The notes beneath the pieces were generated by a model. It did no database searches, was not told the DNA's origin, and worked only from the letters and a program-made list of their open reading frames with translations. The position numbers and the translations under genes are program-made. Positions 2,211-20,821 of a stretch of DNA of 64,000 nt are shown here, piece after piece (position 1 is the first letter of the stretch; each line of letters begins with the position of its first letter). Origin of the DNA: Escherichia coli (lineage in GTDB: Bacteria; Pseudomonadota; Gammaproteobacteria; Enterobacterales; Enterobacteriaceae); NCBI RefSeq assembly GCF_030384885.1, contig NZ_CP128613.1. One strand, written 5' to 3'.

Positions 2211-3472
2211 TAGCGCCAGACTCCTTTGGCATCGACGACATACTGCTGATGGACGTTGTCGCCATTGATAACTTTGAACTGACTATGATCGACCAACATC
2301 ACCAGCACATCTGCCGTTGCCAGCGCCTCGTCAAGCTGCGCCAGAGTACAAAGCCCATTCAGTTTGTTCGGCAACTGGTGAATGTTAGGCTCAACAACCA
2401 GCGTTTCGCCGCTGTGCCACTGAGCGATCAATTCAGCGATTTCCATCGCCGGACTTTCGCGCAGGTCATCAATATTCGGTTTAAACGCCAGACCAAAACA
2501 GGCAATTTTCAGCTCACTGGCGCGTTTATCGGTAGCGGCCAGGCAGTCGGCAACCGCCGCTTTGACCTGATCAATCACCCAGAACGGTTTGTGATCGTTT
2601 ACTTCACGCGCGGTACGGATAAGCCGCGCCTGCTGCGGATTCTGTGCCACGATAAACCACGGATCAACAGCGATGCAGTGACCACCCACGCCAGGGCCAG
2701 GTTGAAGAATATTGACGCGAGGGTGACGATTCGCCAGGCGAATCAGTTCCCAGACGTTAATCCCCTGATCGGCGCAAATCAGCGACAGTTCGTTAGCAAA
2801 AGCGATATTCACATCGCGGAAGCTGTTCTCGGTGAGTTTACACATTTCCGCCGTCCGTGAGTTAGTGACGACACACTCACCTTCGAGGAAAATTTTGTAC
2901 AGTTCGCTGGCACGGGCCGAACAAACCGGCGTCATACCACCAATCACGCGATCGTTTTTAATCAGCTCGACCATAACCTGGCCCGGTAACACGCGTTCCG
3001 GGCAGTAAGCAATGTTGACGTCCGCCTGCTCGCCCACCTGCTGTGGGAAAGTCAGGTCCGGACGCATCTCTGCTAACCATTCTGCCATCTTCTCGGTTGA
3101 ACCCACCGGCGAGGTGGACTCAAGGATCACCAGCGCGCCTTTTTTCAGCACTGGCGCAATGGAGCGAGCAGCCGATTCAACGTAAGCCATATCAGGCTCA
3201 TGATCGCCTTTAAACGGCGTGGGTACAGCAATCAGCCAGGCATCCGCTTCAACCGGCGTCGTGCTCGCTCGTAAAAAACCGCCTTCTACGGCAGTTTTTA
3301 CTACGCTCGCCAAATCAGGCTCGACGATATGGATTTCGCCTCGATTGATGGTATCAACCGCGTGTTGGTTGATATCAACACCAATCACCTGTTTTTGCCG
3401 GGAGGCAAACGCTGCCGCCGTTGGCAGTCCAATGTAACCCAGTCCAATGACAGAAATGGTCGCAAAACTCAT
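2210..3472 (-). CDS. wecC: UDP-N-acetyl-D-mannosamine dehydrogenase
   Basis: 420-aa ORF with N-terminal [15 protein letters not shown]-binding motif; overlaps wecB stop (ATGA-type coupling). Confidence 0.9.
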
Positions 3473-10502: not shown

Positions 10503-11987
10503 ATGGGTTCCACCTCGTCATTATATGCAGCCATTGATCTCGGTTCGAATAGTTTTCATATGCTGGTTGTGCGCGAGGTGGCTGGAAGCATCCAGACGCT
10601 GACGCGAATTAAACGCAAAGTGCGTCTGGCTGCTGGCCTGAACAGCGAAAATGCCCTGTCTAATGAAGCAATGGAGCGCGGTTGGCAATGTTTGCGCCTG
10701 TTTGCTGAACGTCTGCAAGATATCCCTTCCTCGCAAATTCGCGTTGTCGCCACGGCGACATTACGCCTTGCCGTCAATGCCGGTGATTTTATTGCCAAAG
10801 CGCAGGAAATCCTCGGTTGTCCGGTACAAGTGATCAGCGGTGAAGAAGAAGCTCGCCTGATTTATCAGGGTGTTGCTCACACCACTGGCGGTGCCGATCA
10901 GCGCCTGGTGGTGGATATCGGCGGCGCCAGTACTGAACTGGTAACCGGCACGGGCGCACAAACCACCTCGTTGTTCAGCCTGTCGATGGGCTGCGTCACC
11001 TGGCTGGAACGCTATTTTGCCGATCGTAATCTGGGGCAGGAAAATTTTGATGCCGCAGAAAAAGCGGCACGCGAAGTGTTACGTCCGGTTGCCGATGAAT
11101 TGCGGTATCACGGCTGGAAAGTGTGCGTTGGTGCTTCCGGCACCGTGCAGGCCTTACAAGAAATCATGATGGCACAGGGGATGGATGAACGGATTACCCT
11201 GGAAAAGTTGCAGCAACTGAAACAACGCGCCATTCATTGTGGTCGACTGGAGGAACTGGAGATCGACGGACTGACGCTGGAACGTGCGTTAGTGTTCCCG
11301 AGTGGTCTGGCGATCCTGATAGCCATTTTTACCGAACTGAATATTCAGTGTATGACCCTGGCTGGTGGTGCACTGCGTGAAGGGCTGGTCTACGGCATGT
11401 TGCATCTGGTCGTCGAGCAGGATATTCGCAGCCGTACGCTGCGTAATATTCAACGCCGCTTTATGATCGATATTGATCAGGCTCAGCGAGTAGCCAAAGT
11501 TGCGGCTAATTTCTTCGATCAGGTGGAAAACGAATGGCATCTTGAAGCAATAAGCCGTGATTTGCTCATCAGCGCCTGTCAGCTTCATGAAATCGGTCTG
11601 AGCGTTGATTTCAAACAAGCGCCGCAACATGCTGCTTATCTGGTGCGTAATCTGGATCTTCCCGGTTTTACGCCTGCACAGAAAAAATTACTGGCGACGC
11701 TACTACTCAACCAGACGAACCCAATAGATCTCTCCTCGTTGCATCAACAAAATGCCGTACCGCCACGCGTCGCAGAACAACTCTGCCGTTTACTACGCCT
11801 GGCCATCATTTTTGCCAGCCGTCGCCGTGACGATCTCGTGCCAGAGATGACATTAAAGGCCAACCATGAACTGTTGACCTTGACGCTTCCGCAAGGTTGG
11901 CTAACCCAACATCCGCTGGGTAAAGAGATTATTGATCAGGAAAGCCAGTGGCAAAGCTATGTTCACTGGCCGTTGGAAGTACATTAA
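10503..11987 (+). CDS. gppA: guanosine pentaphosphate phosphohydrolase / exopolyphosphatase family
   Basis: ORF 10494..11987; recognised N-terminus [31 protein letters not shown] 9 nt before the second ATG. Confidence 0.9.
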
Positions 11988-11997
11988 AGAATAATAT

Positions 11998-12030
11998 GCC
12001 GGATGCGATGCTCGCGCATCTTACCCGGCC
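11998..12030. repeat. REP-like extragenic palindrome between convergent gppA and rep
   Basis: GCCGGATGCG...GCGCATC..CCGGCC imperfect palindrome resembling the REP consensus, in the 47-bp gap between two stop codons. Confidence 0.45.
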
Positions 12031-12034
12031 TTGA

Positions 12035-14056
12035 TTATTTCCCTCGTTTTGCTGCCATCATCGCCTTCAGATTTGCCAGATGGTTTTGGCCTTTCTGCAT
12101 TCGTTCTTCGGCGCTGACAACTTTGCGCTCCTGTTCCCATACCAAATCATCCTGCGGCAGCTCCAGCAGGAAGCGACTCGGCTCCGGGCGCACAAGTTCG
12201 CCGTACTGACGGCGTTCTTTACACAGCGTAAAGGTCAATTCCTTCTGGGCGCGGGTGATGCCAACATAGGCCAGCCGACGCTCCTCATCAATATTGTCTT
12301 CATCGATGCTGCTCTGGTGAGGCAAAAATCCTTCTTCCATACCGACCATGTAGACATAAGGAAACTCCAGCCCTTTTGACGCGTGCAGAGTCATCAGTTG
12401 TACCTGATCCAGCTCTTCCTCGCTCTCGCCGCGCTCCATCATGTCTCGCAGAGTAAAGCGCGTCACCACCTGAGTGAGCGTCATCGGCTCATCCAGTTCA
12501 CTGCCTTCCAGCATCTCCGTCATCCAGCTAAACAGTTGGTTGACGTTCTTCATGCGCATTTCGGCAGCTTTCGGGCTGGGCGATGTTTCATACAGCCAGG
12601 ATTCATAATCCATGCCGTGGATCAGATCGCGTACTGCGGCAATCGGCTCCCGCTCCGCCAGGCGCTGGATTTCCGCTAGCCAGTGAGTGAAGCGGGTCAA
12701 TGCTTCATAACCACGTCCACTAAGCGTCTGACTCAGGCCCATATCAAAACTGGCGGTAAACATACTTTTATTGCGCGTCATCGCCCACTCGCCCAGCTTT
12801 TTCAGCGTCGCCGGGCCAATCTCTCGTTTCGGCGTGTTAACGATACGCAGAAATGCGCTGTCATCGTCCGGGTTAGTCAGCACGCGCAGATAAGCCAGCA
12901 AATCTTTGATTTCTGGGCGAGAGAAAAACGACGTGCCACCGGAAATTTTGTACGGGATGCGGTTTTGCATCAGGAATTTTTCAAACACCCGCGACTGATG
13001 GTTACCGCGATAAAGAATGGCGTAATCTTTGTACTGCGTTTTATTGACGAAGTGATGGGCGATCAATTCACCGGTGACGCGCTCGGCCTCATGTTCCTCG
13101 TTATTCGCGCTTAAAACTTTTAGCTCTGTGCCGTAACCCAGTTCAGAAAAAAGACGCTTTTCAAAGACGTGCGGGTTATTGGCGATAAGGATGTTCGCCG
13201 CTTTCAGAATACGCCCGGAAGAGCGATAGTTCTGTTCGAGTTTAATCACCTTCAACGCAGGGAAATCCTGGCTCAACAGCACCAGGTTTTGCGGACGGGC
13301 ACCGCGCCAGGAGTAGATCGACTGGTCATCATCGCCTACCACGGTAAAACGTGCGCGGCTGCCCACCAGCAGTTTCACCAGCTCATACTGACTGGTGTTG
13401 GTGTCCTGATATTCATCCACCAGCAGGTAGCGAATTTTGTTCTGCCAGCGCTCGCGGACTTCTTCATTGCGTTGCAGCAGTAACGTCGGCAATAAAATCA
13501 GATCATCGAAGTCGAGAACGTTACAGGCTTTCAGGTGTGAATCATACAGCCCATAACAATGGGCAAAAATGCGATCCCGCTCGCCCTTTGCTTCTGCCGC
13601 CGCCTGCGCCGGTGTTTTGAGATCGTTCTTCCAGTTAGAGATGGTCGAAATCAGCTGTTGCAGAAGAACTTTGTCATCTTCAATCAGCCCCTCGGTCAGT
13701 TCTTTGAGCAACGCCAGTTGATCGGTATCGTCAAACAGTGAAAAGTTCGCTTTCATCCCAAGCGCCGCATACTCCCGTTTGATGATATCCAGCCCTAATG
13801 TATGGAAGGTGGAGATCATCAGCCCGCGCGCCTCTTTACGCCCCAGCGTCTGCCCGACACGCTCTTTCATCTCGCGCGCCGCCTTATTGGTAAAGGTCAC
13901 CGCCGCGATATGTCGCGCCTGATAACCGCAACCGCGGATCAGATGGGCGATTTTATTGGTGATAACACGAGTTTTACCGGAACCCGCGCCCGCCAGCACC
14001 AGGCAGGGGCCGGTAACGAATTCGACAGCTTGTTGTTGGCCGGGGTTTAGACGCAT
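12035..14056 (-). CDS. rep: ATP-dependent DNA helicase Rep
   Basis: ORF 12035..14107; recognised start [31 protein letters not shown] (673 aa); UvrD-family motifs. Confidence 0.9.
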
Positions 14057-14272: not shown

Positions 14273-14722
14273 GTGGCGATTAATTTCAGCCCCAAGGTTG
14301 GTGAAATACTGGAATGCAACTTTGGTAACTATCCCGTTAGCCAGAATGGACAGTTCAGCACGACGTATTACGATGGCCGCATTCCACCTGAGATGATAAA
14401 AAATAGGTTGGTTGTCGTGCTCAACGGAAAAATTAATGGCAACGCATGTATCGTCGTTCCATTATCAACCACTCGCGACCATGACAAGTTAAATCGTGGA
14501 ATGCATGTTGAAATAGCCAGTAATGTTATCAATGACCTGCAATTCTTTGATCCGCAGATACGTTGGGCTAAAGCCGACCTGGTACAACAAGTCAGTCGAA
14601 ACCGATTAAACAGAGCAAGGACTTATCGGGGGTATCTTAATCAATGTTTGCCACATGAGTTGGTTGCAGACATACAGAGGGCAGTCATCAAGTCAATCAA
14701 TGCCATATCGCTCATAAATTGA
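14273..14722 (+). CDS. yifN: MazF/PemK-like toxin-fold protein YifN
   Basis: ORF 14231..14722; AAGGAGA RBS 9 nt before GTG at 14273; PemK-like segments (KVGEIL..., RLVVVL, CIVVPLSTT); position between rep and ppiC. Confidence 0.65.
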   Translation: MAINFSPKVGEILECNFGNYPVSQNGQFSTTYYDGRIPPEMIKNRLVVVLNGKINGNACIVVPLSTTRDHDKLNRGMHVEIASNVINDLQFFDPQIRWAKADLVQQVSRNRLNRARTYRGYLNQCLPHELVADIQRAVIKSINAISLIN

Positions 14723-15184: not shown

Positions 15185-15200
15185 GAACTCTGAATCGCAC

Positions 15201-16676
15201 TTAACCCGCAACTGCAATACGTTTCATATCCGTCATATAGCCGCGCAGTTTCTTACCTACCTGCTCAATCGCATGGCTGCGAATCGCTTCGTTCACATCA
15301 CGCAACTGCGCGTTATCTACCGCACCTTCCGGAATAGCTTTACCCAGGTCGCCCGGTTGCAGCTCTGCCATAAACGGTTTCAGCAACGGCACACAAGCGT
15401 AAGAGAACAGATAGTTACCGTACTCGGCGGTATCAGAGATAACCACGTTCATTTCGTACAGACGCTTACGGGCGATGGTATTGGCAATCAGCGGCAGTTC
15501 GTGCAGTGATTCATAGTAAGCAGACTCTTCGATGATGCCGGAATCAACCATGGTTTCGAATGCCAGCTCAACGCCCGCTTTCACCATCGCGATCATCAGT
15601 ACGCCTTTATCGAAGTACTCTTGCTCGCCGATTTTGCCTTCAAACTGCGGCGCAGTTTCGAACGCGGTTTTGCCGGTTTCTTCACGCCAGGTCAGCAGTT
15701 TCTTATCGTCGTTAGCCCAGTCCGCCATCATGCCGGAAGAGAATTCGCCAGAGATGATATCGTCCATATGTTTCTGGAACAGCGGTGCCATGATCTCTTT
15801 CAGTTGTTCAGAGAGCGCGTAAGCACGCAGTTTCGCCGGGTTAGAGAGACGGTCCATCATCAGGGTGATGCCGCCCTGCTTCAGGGCTTCGGTGATGGTT
15901 TCCCAACCGAACTGAATCAGTTTTTCTGCATATGCCGGGTCGGTGCCTTCTTCCACCAGCTTGTCGAAGCACAGCAGAGAGCCAGCCTGCAACATACCGC
16001 ACAGAATGGTTTGCTCGCCCATCAGGTCAGATTTCACTTCCGCAACAAAGGACGATTCCAGCACGCCAGCACGGTGACCACCAGTTGCTGCCGCCCATGC
16101 TTTAGCGATCGCCATGCCTTCGCCTTTCGGATCGTTTTCCGGGTGAACGGCAATCAGCGTCGGTACGCCAAACCCACGTTTGTACTCTTCACGCACTTCA
16201 GTGCCAGGGCATTTCGGCGCAACCATTACTACGGTGATGTCTTTACGGATCTGCTCGCCCACTTCGACGATGTTGAAACCATGTGAGTAACCCAGCGCCG
16301 CGCCGTCTTTCATCAGTGGCTGTACGGTGCGCACCACGTCGGAGTGCTGTTTGTCTGGCGTCAGGTTAACCACCAGATCTGCCTGCGGGATCAGCTCTTC
16401 GTAAGTACCCACTTTAAAACCGTTTTCGGTCGCTTTACGCCAGGATGCGCGCTTCTCAGCGATCGCTTCTTTACGCAGGGCATAAGAGATATCCAGACCA
16501 GAATCACGCATGTTCAGGCCCTGGTTCAGACCCTGCGCACCACAACCGACGATGACCACTTTTTTACCCTGAAGGTAGCTCGCGCCATCGGCGAATTCGT
16601 CGCGGCCCATAAAGCGACATTTGCCCAGCTGTGCCAGCTGCTGGCGCAGGTTCAGTGTATTGAAGTAGTTAGCCAT
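15201..16676 (-). CDS. ilvC: ketol-acid reductoisomerase
   Basis: ORF 15201..16826; recognised start [23 protein letters not shown] (491 aa). Confidence 0.95.
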
Positions 16677-16825
16677 GGTGATTCCTCGTGATGTTGTGCT
16701 TCTTATTGTTCGGTTCGCGTTTGCGAGATTGAATTCACTATATGACAGGAAATTTATTGCGGAAATTGATATATTCACAACGTCACATTGCAATTTTTGC
16801 AACGTCAACATTGAGGGCTGCGCCA
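16677..16825. promoter_or_regulatory. ilvY-ilvC divergent promoter/operator region
   Basis: 150-bp AT-rich spacer between divergent starts; contains TTGCAA-N5-TTGCAA dyad typical of LysR-type operators. Confidence 0.55.
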
Positions 16826-17716
16826 TTGGATTTACGCGATCTGAAAACCTTCCTGCATCTGGCGGAAAGCCGCCATTTTGGCCGCAGCGCGCGGGCGATG
16901 CACGTTAGTCCATCCACGCTTTCCCGACAGATTCAGCGCCTGGAAGAAGATCTCGGTCAGCAGCTGTTTGTGCGCGATAACCGTACGGTGACGCTGACCG
17001 AAGCGGGCGAAGAACTGCGCGTTTTCGCCCAGCAAACACTGTTGCAGTATCAGCAATTGCGCCACACCATCGACCAGCAAGGACCGTCGCTCTCTGGCGA
17101 ATTACATATCTTCTGCTCGGTGACCGCTGCCTACAGCCATCTGCCGCCGATTCTTGACAGATTCCGCGCGGAACACCCGTCAGTGGAGATCAAACTCACT
17201 ACCGGTGATGCGGCGGATGCGATGGAAAAAGTGGTGACGGGGGAAGCGGATCTGGCGATTGCCGGGAAGCCGGAGACGCTGCCCGGTGCAGTGGCGTTTT
17301 CGATGCTGGAGAATCTGGCAGTGGTGCTGATCGCGCCTGCCCTACCGTGCCCGGTGCGTAATCAGGTTTCGGTAGAGAAGCCGGACTGGTCTACAGTGCC
17401 GTTTATCATGGCAGATCAGGGGCCGGTGCGCCGCCGCATTGAGCTGTGGTTCCGACGCAATAAAATCAGTAACCCGATGATTTACGCCACGGTTGGCGGA
17501 CATGAAGCGATGGTTTCGATGGTGGCGCTCGGCTGCGGCGTGGCATTGTTGCCGGAAGTGGTGCTGGAAAACAGCCCGGAACCGGTGCGTAACCGCGTGA
17601 TGATTCTGGAGCGTAGCGATGAGAAAACGCCGTTTGAGCTGGGCGTTTGTGCACAAAAAAAGCGGCTGCATGAGCCGCTGATTGAGGCTTTCTGGAAGAT
17701 TTTACCGAATTACTAA
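16826..17716 (+). CDS. ilvY: LysR-family transcriptional activator of ilvC
   Basis: Protein reads (M)[44 protein letters not shown]...; the codon encoding the first residue is TTG at 16826, no in-frame ATG nearby. Confidence 0.85.
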
Positions 17717-17726
17717 GGACAATTTC

Positions 17727-18116
17727 ATGACAACAAGAAAGTGGATATTATTATTGGTTTTAGCGGTAAGTTGCATTGCGCAAGCCAAACCGAAAGGTAT
17801 CACCGTTCAGGATGTGAAGCATCTGGCGTTGAAAGAGTGTTTAACGTCCCATTATCGTGAGCGTACGCCCGCTGATGCCTTTTCGGCTCCTGCTCATGAC
17901 GTTTCATTTCTGCTTGAAAGGTATGCTTTAGATAATGCTGGAAAGTGGAATGCTTTTCAGAAATTTGTCGCCAAAGAGACGAAGGGATTTGGCACCCTCA
18001 CCCTTGCGCTACATCCCGATAGCGCAAAGGATGCGAATAACATAATGGAGCGGTGTATGAGCTTTTATGAGTCGGAAAAGCTTGATAATTACATTCGTAA
18101 TAAGATTATGAAGTAA
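17727..18116 (+). CDS. hypothetical small exported protein (predicted signal peptide; possible lipobox)
   Basis: ATG with AAGGA RBS 8 nt upstream, starting 10 nt after the ilvY stop; N-terminus MTTRKWILLLVLAVSCIAQA|KPKG has n/h/c signal regions and an AxA site; two Cys in the mature part. No family recognised. Confidence 0.6.
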   Translation: MTTRKWILLLVLAVSCIAQAKPKGITVQDVKHLALKECLTSHYRERTPADAFSAPAHDVSFLLERYALDNAGKWNAFQKFVAKETKGFGTLTLALHPDSAKDANNIMERCMSFYESEKLDNYIRNKIMK

Positions 18117-18134
18117 ATCGTGAGAAATAAATAC

Positions 18135-18725
18135 ATGGCAAAAAATAATAATCACTTACCATCGAATATCGATAATTTCTCTATCCATAAGAAATACACC
18201 CACATATTTGACATTGCCTTTGTAAAGTTTGGTGCCAGACTGGCAGATGTACAAATGACACTATTCAAAAACACATCGCCCTCAGTTTATACACTTCAAT
18301 GTATAAGTGACGATGAATTGTTCTTTATTGATATTTACGAAGATGAGCAAGCCGTGTTAGCAGAACACCGAATTATTGATAATGAAGAAAATATTGTTTT
18401 CATCCCACATTGTTTTACAAAAATGTTAATGACTGCTTGTCAGGAAGCTAAAAAACAACCTGCTTTATACACGGAAGATATACTAATGAGCAAAAGAGTG
18501 CGTCGCCAGCGACTATCACAGACTATGCCTGCTCTGGTGAGCCTACGTGACATCCATATCGATTTTAGGACCAGTTACGGACATGGCGAAGCCTCATACG
18601 AGATCAATTTTAGTCCATACGCTATCGAAAATGGTGACTGGATGAACGCTAAAAGGTGCAGAAATTTTTCTGTTATGTTCGATGAGAATATGAATTTTAT
18701 AGAAGTTCAATGGTATAGGGATTAA
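18135..18725 (+). CDS. hypothetical cytoplasmic protein (196 aa), AT-rich gene
   Basis: ORF 18120..18725; likely start is the ATG at 18135 (MAKNNNHLPSN...); no TM or signal peptide; visibly AT-rich codon usage; no recognisable motif. Confidence 0.55.
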   Translation: MAKNNNHLPSNIDNFSIHKKYTHIFDIAFVKFGARLADVQMTLFKNTSPSVYTLQCISDDELFFIDIYEDEQAVLAEHRIIDNEENIVFIPHCFTKMLMTACQEAKKQPALYTEDILMSKRVRRQRLSQTMPALVSLRDIHIDFRTSYGHGEASYEINFSPYAIENGDWMNAKRCRNFSVMFDENMNFIEVQWYRD

Positions 18726-18731
18726 AAAAAC

Positions 18732-19205
18732 TTAAACCGAAACACGATTTGGAAACATAACAACCTCCACTTCAATTTCTGTTAAATTACTTAAATTGAT
18801 TATCAGTTTTAACTCTGAATGTTCGTTAATTGCCATCAAAATATCATTGCTAACAGAAATAAAGCTTATTGGGTTAGTCTGGGTAAAAAAGAATCCCCAG
18901 ACAAAATTATTATCAGCATCTATATATACCAACGATCCCTCGTTTCCCATCGTTCCATCACCGCCGTAGATTTTCCCGCCTTTATACTCAGTAAATGTCC
19001 AGTAGTCGACGGGAACCCAGCAATCAGAATCGTATTTTTCAATACTGGAGAAGGATGTATCACACAAAGGAGTACACCAGGCTTTCTTCTCTTTCGTGTA
19101 ATTATCGAAAGACTCCCGCCAGTTTAAAAGGGTGACAGTCCCATTCGCAAAGGTCAGGCTATCGATTCCAGGTAACTCTTTTTTCTCTTCCCAGCGTTTA
19201 AACAT
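18732..19205 (-). CDS. hypothetical cytoplasmic protein (157 aa)
   Basis: ATG at 19205 with AAGGA RBS 9 nt upstream; stop lies 6 bp from the stop of the preceding plus-strand ORF (tail-to-tail); AT-rich; no recognisable motif. Confidence 0.55.
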   Translation of the reverse strand: MFKRWEEKKELPGIDSLTFANGTVTLLNWRESFDNYTKEKKAWCTPLCDTSFSSIEKYDSDCWVPVDYWTFTEYKGGKIYGGDGTMGNEGSLVYIDADNNFVWGFFFTQTNPISFISVSNDILMAINEHSELKLIINLSNLTEIEVEVVMFPNRVSV

Positions 19206-19240
19206 GACAATAAATCCTTTTATTTCATCACGTAGTATAA

Positions 19241-19268
19241 CTCCCTAATGAAGACGTTCATTAGGGAG
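19241..19268 (-). terminator. perfect 12-bp inverted repeat just downstream of the ilvA stop
   Basis: CTCCCTAATGAA-GACG-TTCATTAGGGAG; weak U-tract, so possibly a leaky terminator or processing site. Confidence 0.45.
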
Positions 19269-19276
19269 CCATGTGT

Positions 19277-20821
19277 TTAACCCGCCAAAAAGAACCTGAA
19301 CGCCGGGTTATGGGTTTCGTCGTGGCAATCGTAGCCCAGCTCATTTAGCCGGGTTTCGAAATCCGGTTCGTGGTCGCCAAGCTCGAACGCCGCCAGTACG
19401 CGCCCGTAGTCGGTACCGTGGCTGCGATAATGGAAAAGCGAAATGTTCCAGTGGGTACCTAGCGTGTTGAGGAAGCGCAGCAGCGCGCCCGGCGATTCCG
19501 GGAACTCGAAGCTGTAGAGGCGTTCCTGCAACGGATGCGATGGACGCCCACCAACCATATAGCGCACGTGTAGCTTCGCCATTTCGTCGTCGGAGAGATC
19601 AACCACGCTGTAGCCGCCATCGTTGAGCATCTGCAAAATTTCTTTACGCTCTTCGAGCCCTCGACTTAAGCGCACGCCGACAAAAATGCAGGCGTTTTTG
19701 GCATCGGCAAAGCGGTAGTTGAACTCGGTGACCGAGCGCCCGCCAAGCAGTTGGCAGAACTTCAGGAAGCTGCCCTTCTCTTCCGGGATAGTCACCGCCA
19801 GCAACGCTTCACGCTGTTCACCCAGTTCGCAGCGTTCCGAGACGTAGCGCAGGCCGTGGAAATTGACATTCGCCCCCGAAAGCACATGCGCCAGTCGTTC
19901 GCCGCGAATATTGTTCTGGGCGATGTATTTTTTCATTCCCGCCAGCGCCAGCGCGCCGGAAGGTTCCGCCACCGCGCGCACATCTTCGAATAAATCCTTC
20001 ATCGCCGCACAGATCGCATCACTATCGACGGTGATGATGTCGTCGAGATACTCCTGGCATAAACGGAATGTTTCGTCGCCAATGCGTTTTACCGCTACGC
20101 CTTCAGCAAATAGCCCCACGCGCGGCAGATCAACCGGATGACCCGCATCCAGCGCCGCTTTCAGGCAGGCGGAGTCTTCCGCTTCAACGGCAATCACTTT
20201 GATTTGCGGCATCAGTTGTTTGATCAGCACCGCCACACCCGCCGCCAGACCGCCGCCGCCGACCGGCACAAACACGCGGTCAAGATGGGCATCCTGCTGG
20301 AGCAGTTCCAGCGCCAGCGTGCCTTGCCCGGCGATCACCATCGGGTGGTCGAACGGCGGCACCCAGGTGAAGCCCTGCTGCTGTGACAGTTCGATCGCTT
20401 TCGCTTTTGCTTCGTCAAAGTTCGCGCCATGAAGCAACACTTCGCCGCCAAAGCCGCGTACCGCATCAACTTTGATATCGGCGGTGGCGGTTGGCATGAC
20501 GATCAGCGCCTTCACGCCTAACCGCGCGGAGGAAAACGCGACGCCCTGCGCGTGATTACCCGCCGAGGCAGTGATCACGCCATGCGCTTTTTGTTCTTCC
20601 GTCAGGCCCGCCATCATGGCGTATGCACCGCGCAGCTTAAAGCTGTGTACCGGCTGGCGATCTTCGCGCTTCACCAGAATCACGTTATCAAGACGCGACG
20701 AGAGCTTTTCCATTTTTTGTAGCGGCGTGACCTGCGCCGCCTCGTAAACCGGTGCACGTAGCACCGCTCTTAAATATTCGGCGCCTTCCGGAGCACCAGA
20801 CAGGGGTTGTGAGTCTGCCAT
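19277..20821 (-). CDS. ilvA: threonine deaminase (biosynthetic threonine dehydratase)
   Basis: ORF 19277..20824; recognised start MADSQPLSGAPEGAEYLRAVLRAPVYEAAQVTPLQKMEKLS (514 aa). Confidence 0.95.
   Translation of the reverse strand: MADSQPLSGAPEGAEYLRAVLRAPVYEAAQVTPLQKMEKLSSRLDNVILVKREDRQPVHSFKLRGAYAMMAGLTEEQKAHGVITASAGNHAQGVAFSSARLGVKALIVMPTATADIKVDAVRGFGGEVLLHGANFDEAKAKAIELSQQQGFTWVPPFDHPMVIAGQGTLALELLQQDAHLDRVFVPVGGGGLAAGVAVLIKQLMPQIKVIAVEAEDSACLKAALDAGHPVDLPRVGLFAEGVAVKRIGDETFRLCQEYLDDIITVDSDAICAAMKDLFEDVRAVAEPSGALALAGMKKYIAQNNIRGERLAHVLSGANVNFHGLRYVSERCELGEQREALLAVTIPEEKGSFLKFCQLLGGRSVTEFNYRFADAKNACIFVGVRLSRGLEERKEILQMLNDGGYSVVDLSDDEMAKLHVRYMVGGRPSHPLQERLYSFEFPESPGALLRFLNTLGTHWNISLFHYRSHGTDYGRVLAAFELGDHEPDFETRLNELGYDCHDETHNPAFRFFLAG

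Follow-up and report, generated by a model that had tools for sequence, protein, structure and literature searches.

Whether translation begins at AUG, GUG, or UUG, the same initiator tRNA is used, and methionine occupies position 1 of the protein. TTG starts about 3% of Escherichia coli genes, and in a systematic study GUG and UUG worked at 10 to 100% of the efficiency of AUG (bioRxiv 10.1101/063800), whereas another account puts both codons 8- to 12-fold below AUG (PMC11445065). Conserved non-ATG starts have been described in the regulators lacI, cra, and mlc, and the weak start of lacI has been demonstrated to tune the level of the regulator (PMC11445065). The closest described locus is ilvY of E. 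coli K-12 (b3773; WP_000365791.1), which is transcribed divergently from ilvC. Wek and Hatfield, as summarized in a phylogenetic-footprinting paper (PMC5002191), centered the operator O1 (ACgTTGCAAaaaTTGCAAtGT) at +17 of the ilvY transcription start. As that paper presents the system, a second operator, O2, overlaps the ilvY −10 and −35 hexamers, and IlvY represses transcription of ilvY independently of inducer (PMC5002191). No statement on the ilvY initiation codon was found in the searchable literature, and no ilvY proteomic or initiation-profiling data were found in the searchable texts.

The window analyzed here, a stretch of 64,000 nucleotides of E. coli DNA (NZ_CP128613.1), shares with K-12 the gene, its divergence from ilvC, the operators, the start position, and the Shine-Dalgarno motif. 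It differs in having TTG rather than GTG as the start codon, A rather than T at −1, and the spacer GCGCCA rather than GTCCCT. The ilvY coding sequence lies at 16826 to 17716 on the plus strand (296 codons and a stop), as defined by the open reading frame and its Pfam domains, and is about 93% identical to that of K-12. Its target gene, ilvC, occupies 15201 to 16676 on the minus strand (open reading frame and RefSeq annotation), and the two start codons are 149 bp apart, a spacing identical to that of K-12. Both domains of a LysR-type regulator are present in the product: an N-terminal helix-turn-helix (HTH_1, residues 3 to 62; E = 7.8e-23) and a C-terminal substrate-binding domain (LysR_substrate, residues 89 to 293; E = 4.3e-37). 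RefSeq names the protein IlvY, and it is orthologous to K-12 IlvY, from which it differs at four aligned positions, comprising the start-codon position, Q46 (P in K-12), and the C-terminal end. This close match bears out the sequence-only reading, which had recognized an IlvY N terminus in this frame.

That reading had also proposed that ilvY initiates at a TTG codon within 16820 to 16830. A TTG was found at 16826 to 16828 on the plus strand, and the site reads, in order, CATTGAGGGCTGCGCCA, TTG, and then in frame GAT TTA CGC GAT CTG AAA ACC TTC, encoding DLRDLKTF. The suggested comparison with annotated ilvY starts in reference genomes gave the same codon position in 15/15 E. coli genomes, with start calls that all come from one pipeline (RefSeq/PGAP), which is partly homology-driven, and that are not independent of one another. 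These genomes are E. coli 2013C-4282 (NZ_CP027579.1), K-12, and 13 others picked across the similarity range. The first of them is 100% identical to the window over the 1.2 kb around the site, and its RefSeq ilvY coding sequence starts at locus position 3227, which corresponds to window position 16826. The ilvY frame in the open reading frame list stays open up to the stop codon at 17714 to 17716, and the first start-type codon to follow a stop in this frame is an ATG at 16742. As had been stated, this sole in-frame ATG lies 84 nt upstream of the TTG (16826 minus 16742), with no in-frame ATG or GTG between them. Three more in-frame TTG codons, which went unmentioned in the earlier reading, lie upstream at 16811 (−15), 16766 (−60), and 16757 (−69). 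The choice among these candidates was answered by comparison with other genomes, and chance was not at issue.

The TTG at 16826 has the initiation signal that a near-cognate start codon (ATG, GTG, or TTG with a Shine-Dalgarno motif 5 to 10 nt upstream) is expected to have. A GAGG motif lies at 16814 to 16817 on the plus strand (GAGGG to 16818), and a spacer of 8 nt separates it from the start codon. The leader differs from that of K-12 at five places. Three of these (16821, 16822, and 16825) fall in the variable spacer that separates the Shine-Dalgarno motif from the start codon (16818 to 16825, plus strand), and the others are 16812 and the start codon itself. When 87 nt of leader and early coding region were folded, neither allele was more structured than shuffled sequence (z = +0.76 and +0.78), which indicates an accessible start site. 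For the same reason, the idea that the spacer differences act in regulation through structure was dropped. The A at −1 also creates an ATT at 16825 to 16827, which was rejected as a start because it is outside the IlvY frame.

The upstream codons were evaluated against the regulatory DNA between ilvC and ilvY, in which both published operator sequences were located in tandem. O1 (ACATTGCAATTTTTGCAACGT; 16785 to 16805, plus strand) matches published O1 when read from the opposite strand, and O2 (TTATTGCGGAAATTGATATAT; 16754 to 16774, plus strand), which overlaps the ilvY promoter hexamers, is the reverse complement of published O2 (PMC5002191). Since the center of O1 is at 16795 in the window and at +17 in the published summary, ilvY transcription would start near 16779 on the plus strand, leaving a leader of about 47 nt; the offset is taken from this secondary source (PMC5002191). 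A scan of 16600 to 16900 for sigma-70 promoter and terminator consensus sequences returned no match, and the promoter position therefore rests on the literature. With a transcription start near 16779, the ATG at 16742 and the TTG codons at 16757 and 16766 would all lie upstream of the transcript.

Translation from the ATG at 16742 to 16744 (plus strand) would yield a protein 28 residues longer. In its favor, this codon heads an open frame as the sole in-frame ATG, and a minority of the other species likewise have an ATG at −84. However, it lies about 37 nt upstream of the transcription start deduced from the published O1 offset (PMC5002191) and adjoins O2 in the promoter region. It also has no Shine-Dalgarno motif upstream, and it is used by none of the RefSeq annotations examined. 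The interspecies comparison described next bears on this codon as well, and with it initiation at 16742 becomes extremely improbable.

A single scan of species-representative genomes yielded 80 Enterobacteriaceae loci. The codon preceding DLRDLK was a start codon in 80/80 species (GTG in 66, ATG in 13, and TTG in 1, E. albertii), and no synonymous GTN or CTN variants were seen in this column. By comparison, Val27, an ordinary valine codon of ilvY, varies among GTC (69), GTT (8), and GTG (4). All 80 species have a motif of the GGAG/GAGG type 5 to 11 nt ahead of the start, most commonly GGAG at 8 nt (43/80). An in-frame stop is present 6 to 21 nt upstream of the start, and thus of the DLRDLK codons, in 51/80 species, so that no other start is possible there. 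In addition, the spacing between the start and the last TGCAA-like (operator) motif differs by numbers not divisible by 3 (22, 23, and others), which shows that the leader is noncoding. Most of the 80 species either lack an ATG corresponding to 16742 or have it cut off by in-frame stops. The ilvY genes of the window and K-12 differ by 66 substitutions, of which 59 occupy third codon positions, a periodicity that begins at the TTG codon.

The in-frame TTG at 16811 to 16813 (plus strand) is an allowed start codon and falls within the inferred transcript; its use, in whole or in part, would add the five residues M-R-A-A-P. A TTG at −15 also occurs in loci L012, L015, and L016. Nevertheless, the sequence upstream of it (TTTGCAACGTCAACA) contains no purine-rich Shine-Dalgarno motif, and the codon overlaps the Shine-Dalgarno motif used by 16826. 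Most species either have no TTG at −15 or have stops before it, and the codon at 16811 is TCG in K-12, O157:H7, and O104:H4, one of these genomes carrying the TTG start allele. Even as a minor start on the transcript of the TTG allele, this codon is very unlikely to be used.

Initiation could also be placed downstream, at codon 25, the Met in ARAMHVS. This is the first ATG of the coding frame, and it is ATG in 79/81 sequences. A start there would, however, remove residues 3 to 24 of the HTH_1 DNA-binding domain, and the profile alignment begins at residue 3 of the TTG-defined protein. Moreover, codons 2 to 24 are almost invariant at the protein level across the 80 species (amino acid conservation of 0.97 to 1.00), which indicates that they are translated. 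We consider the probability of a start at codon 25 to be negligible.

The best explanation is, with high confidence, that ilvY starts at the TTG at 16826 to 16828, positioned by GAGG, and this codon is one of two common E. coli alleles within a family-wide norm of non-ATG initiation. Placement of the start at 16826 is supported by four independent lines of evidence: the public annotation, the start-codon column of the 80 species, the probable position of the transcription start, and the alignment of HTH_1 from residue 3.

The beginning of the coding sequence also stands out at the nucleotide level. Across the 80 species, ilvY codons 2 to 21 have roughly half the synonymous entropy of the remaining codons (0.5 to 0.6 versus about 1.1 bits), and the rare leucine codon TTA is used at codon 3 in all 80 sequences with leucine there. 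The window does not differ from K-12 over 161 nt of regulatory DNA (16651 to 16811) or over the first 27 ilvY codons (16827 to 16908), whereas third positions elsewhere in ilvY differ by about 20%. This pattern points to nucleotide-level constraint just after the ilvY start. Within the same set of species, two loci match the window in their ilvC-ilvY DNA as closely as other Escherichia species do: L015, a metagenome-assembled genome labeled Pseudocitrobacter (93.8% identity), and L014, Pseudocitrobacter faecalis (90.6%). The L015 leader is of the Escherichia type (CATTGAGGGCTGCGCCTGTG). This closeness could reflect misbinning or gene transfer.

The frequencies of the two start codons within E. 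coli were determined with 57-mers that span the Shine-Dalgarno motif through codon 15, matched at ≥99% identity. The TTG-containing 57-mer of the window matched 3307/5420 E. coli records (61%), and the GTG-containing 57-mer of K-12 matched 1862/5419 (34%). The other approximately 250 records (about 5%) carry minor haplotypes; of four sequences sampled from this class or resembling it, LR-46 and EA2 have GTG, and ZYB39 and A287 have TTG. TTG is therefore the majority ilvY allele in E. coli. O157:H7 and K-12 carry GTG, whereas O104:H4, ST131, and UTI89 carry TTG. The TTG allele of mainstream E. coli, the last three included, and of E. albertii is identical to the window throughout the 57-nt stretch that begins with the Shine-Dalgarno motif and ends with codon 15, CCATTG included, and RefSeq places the start of this allele at the TTG. 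The rest of ilvY in the window nonetheless differs by about 6 to 7% from most mainstream TTG-allele genomes. The earlier description of TTG starts as rare is accurate for E. coli genes overall, at about 3%, but does not hold at this gene, where TTG is carried by 61% of records. The ilvY TTG start is thus correct, yet ordinary, being both already annotated publicly and the commoner of two natural variants.

The start codon is coupled to the base that precedes it. In every Escherichia sequence examined, A precedes TTG (CCATTG) and T precedes GTG (CCTGTG) at the position corresponding to window 16825 to 16826, and no intermediates between CCATTG and CCTGTG were seen among these sequences. CCA-TTG and CCT-GTG are thus separated by a tandem TG-to-AT change. 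Some of the weakness of TTG as a start might be made up for by the A at −1. Because GTG predominates across the Enterobacteriaceae, GTG is most likely ancestral and TTG a derived Escherichia allele.

One reading of the polymorphism is that GTG (about 35 to 39%) and TTG (61%), together with the coupled −1 base, form a maintained expression variant that sets different levels of IlvY. This reading is analogous to lacI, for which fitness effects of the start codon have been shown. If it were true, the alleles would differ in ilvC inducibility and in branched-chain amino acid or pantothenate flux. We regard it as unlikely. ilvY resembles lacI and other regulators in having a predominantly non-ATG start codon across the Enterobacteriaceae (PMC11445065). 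It differs from them in that the E. coli alleles are two weak codons, GTG and TTG, whereas the lacI-type comparison is between ATG and non-ATG, and in that tuning by the weak start was demonstrated for lacI (PMC11445065) and would be a prediction for ilvY.

IlvY ends in KILPNY in the window (296 amino acids; 17705 to 17716) and in KILPNHK in K-12 (297 amino acids), a difference that results from an insertion immediately downstream; across species, 296-amino-acid forms are the commonest (60/81 sequences). The inserted islet (17717 to 19276; 1.56 kb) lies between the convergent genes ilvY and ilvA, separated by 51 bp in K-12, and has a GC content of 38.7%, compared with 54 to 58% for the flanking genes. 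It was found in only 2/5426 complete E. coli genomes, and its leftmost 200 nt or so are 83% identical to E. albertii. The islet contains three hypothetical open reading frames, at 17727 to 18116 and 18135 to 18725 on the plus strand and at 18732 to 19205 on the minus strand. The first of these has a subthreshold Pfam match to Tai4, a type VI secretion system amidase immunity protein (E = 0.005; 17.9 bits against a cutoff of 27.1).

Two stretches of the window, rep/gppA (11800 to 13000) and ilvC, ilvY, and ilvA (15196 to 20715), are each about 93 to 94% identical to K-12 and to nearly all E. coli. Each has a match at ≥99% in only 7 to 13 of 5426 complete genomes, and 2013C-4282 is identical. 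This distribution points to a rare, divergent lineage or else to a long recombinant haplotype. RefSeq annotates an intact gene for a toxin of the PemK/MazF family at 14273 to 14722, flanked by rep and ppiC and a short distance upstream of the ilv genes. Seven ilvY matches were found on E. coli records labeled as plasmids, such as NZ_CP081793.1 (57.9 kb). One plasmid-labeled match shares only 84.8% identity with the window, suggesting that it comes from another genus or that its contig is mislabeled.

Taken together, the sequence features of the locus suggest how ilvY would be expressed. The mRNA would begin about 47 nt upstream of the TTG, near 16779, as calculated from the offset given in the footprinting paper (PMC5002191). 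The GAGG 8 nt before the TTG would position the ribosome, and the initiator tRNA would read TTG as formyl-methionine, giving a protein that begins M-D-L-R-D-L-K. The non-ATG start probably keeps translation of the autorepressed IlvY low. Weaker translation would in turn be partly offset by derepression, so that negative autoregulation could buffer the difference between GTG and TTG, and the polymorphism may for this reason be nearly neutral. The start is non-ATG in 67/80 species, which suggests that weak initiation of ilvY is tolerated or favored and makes it plausible, as had been proposed, that a weak start suits a low-abundance, autoregulated IlvY.

The TTG start itself is already known, in that public annotation gives the same start, and it matters little beyond correct annotation. 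The K-12 reference, which carries GTG, is not representative of E. coli at the ilvY start codon. At the level of the family, ilvY joins the regulators with a predominantly non-ATG start across the Enterobacteriaceae, and it could serve to test the buffering of start-codon strength by negative autoregulation.
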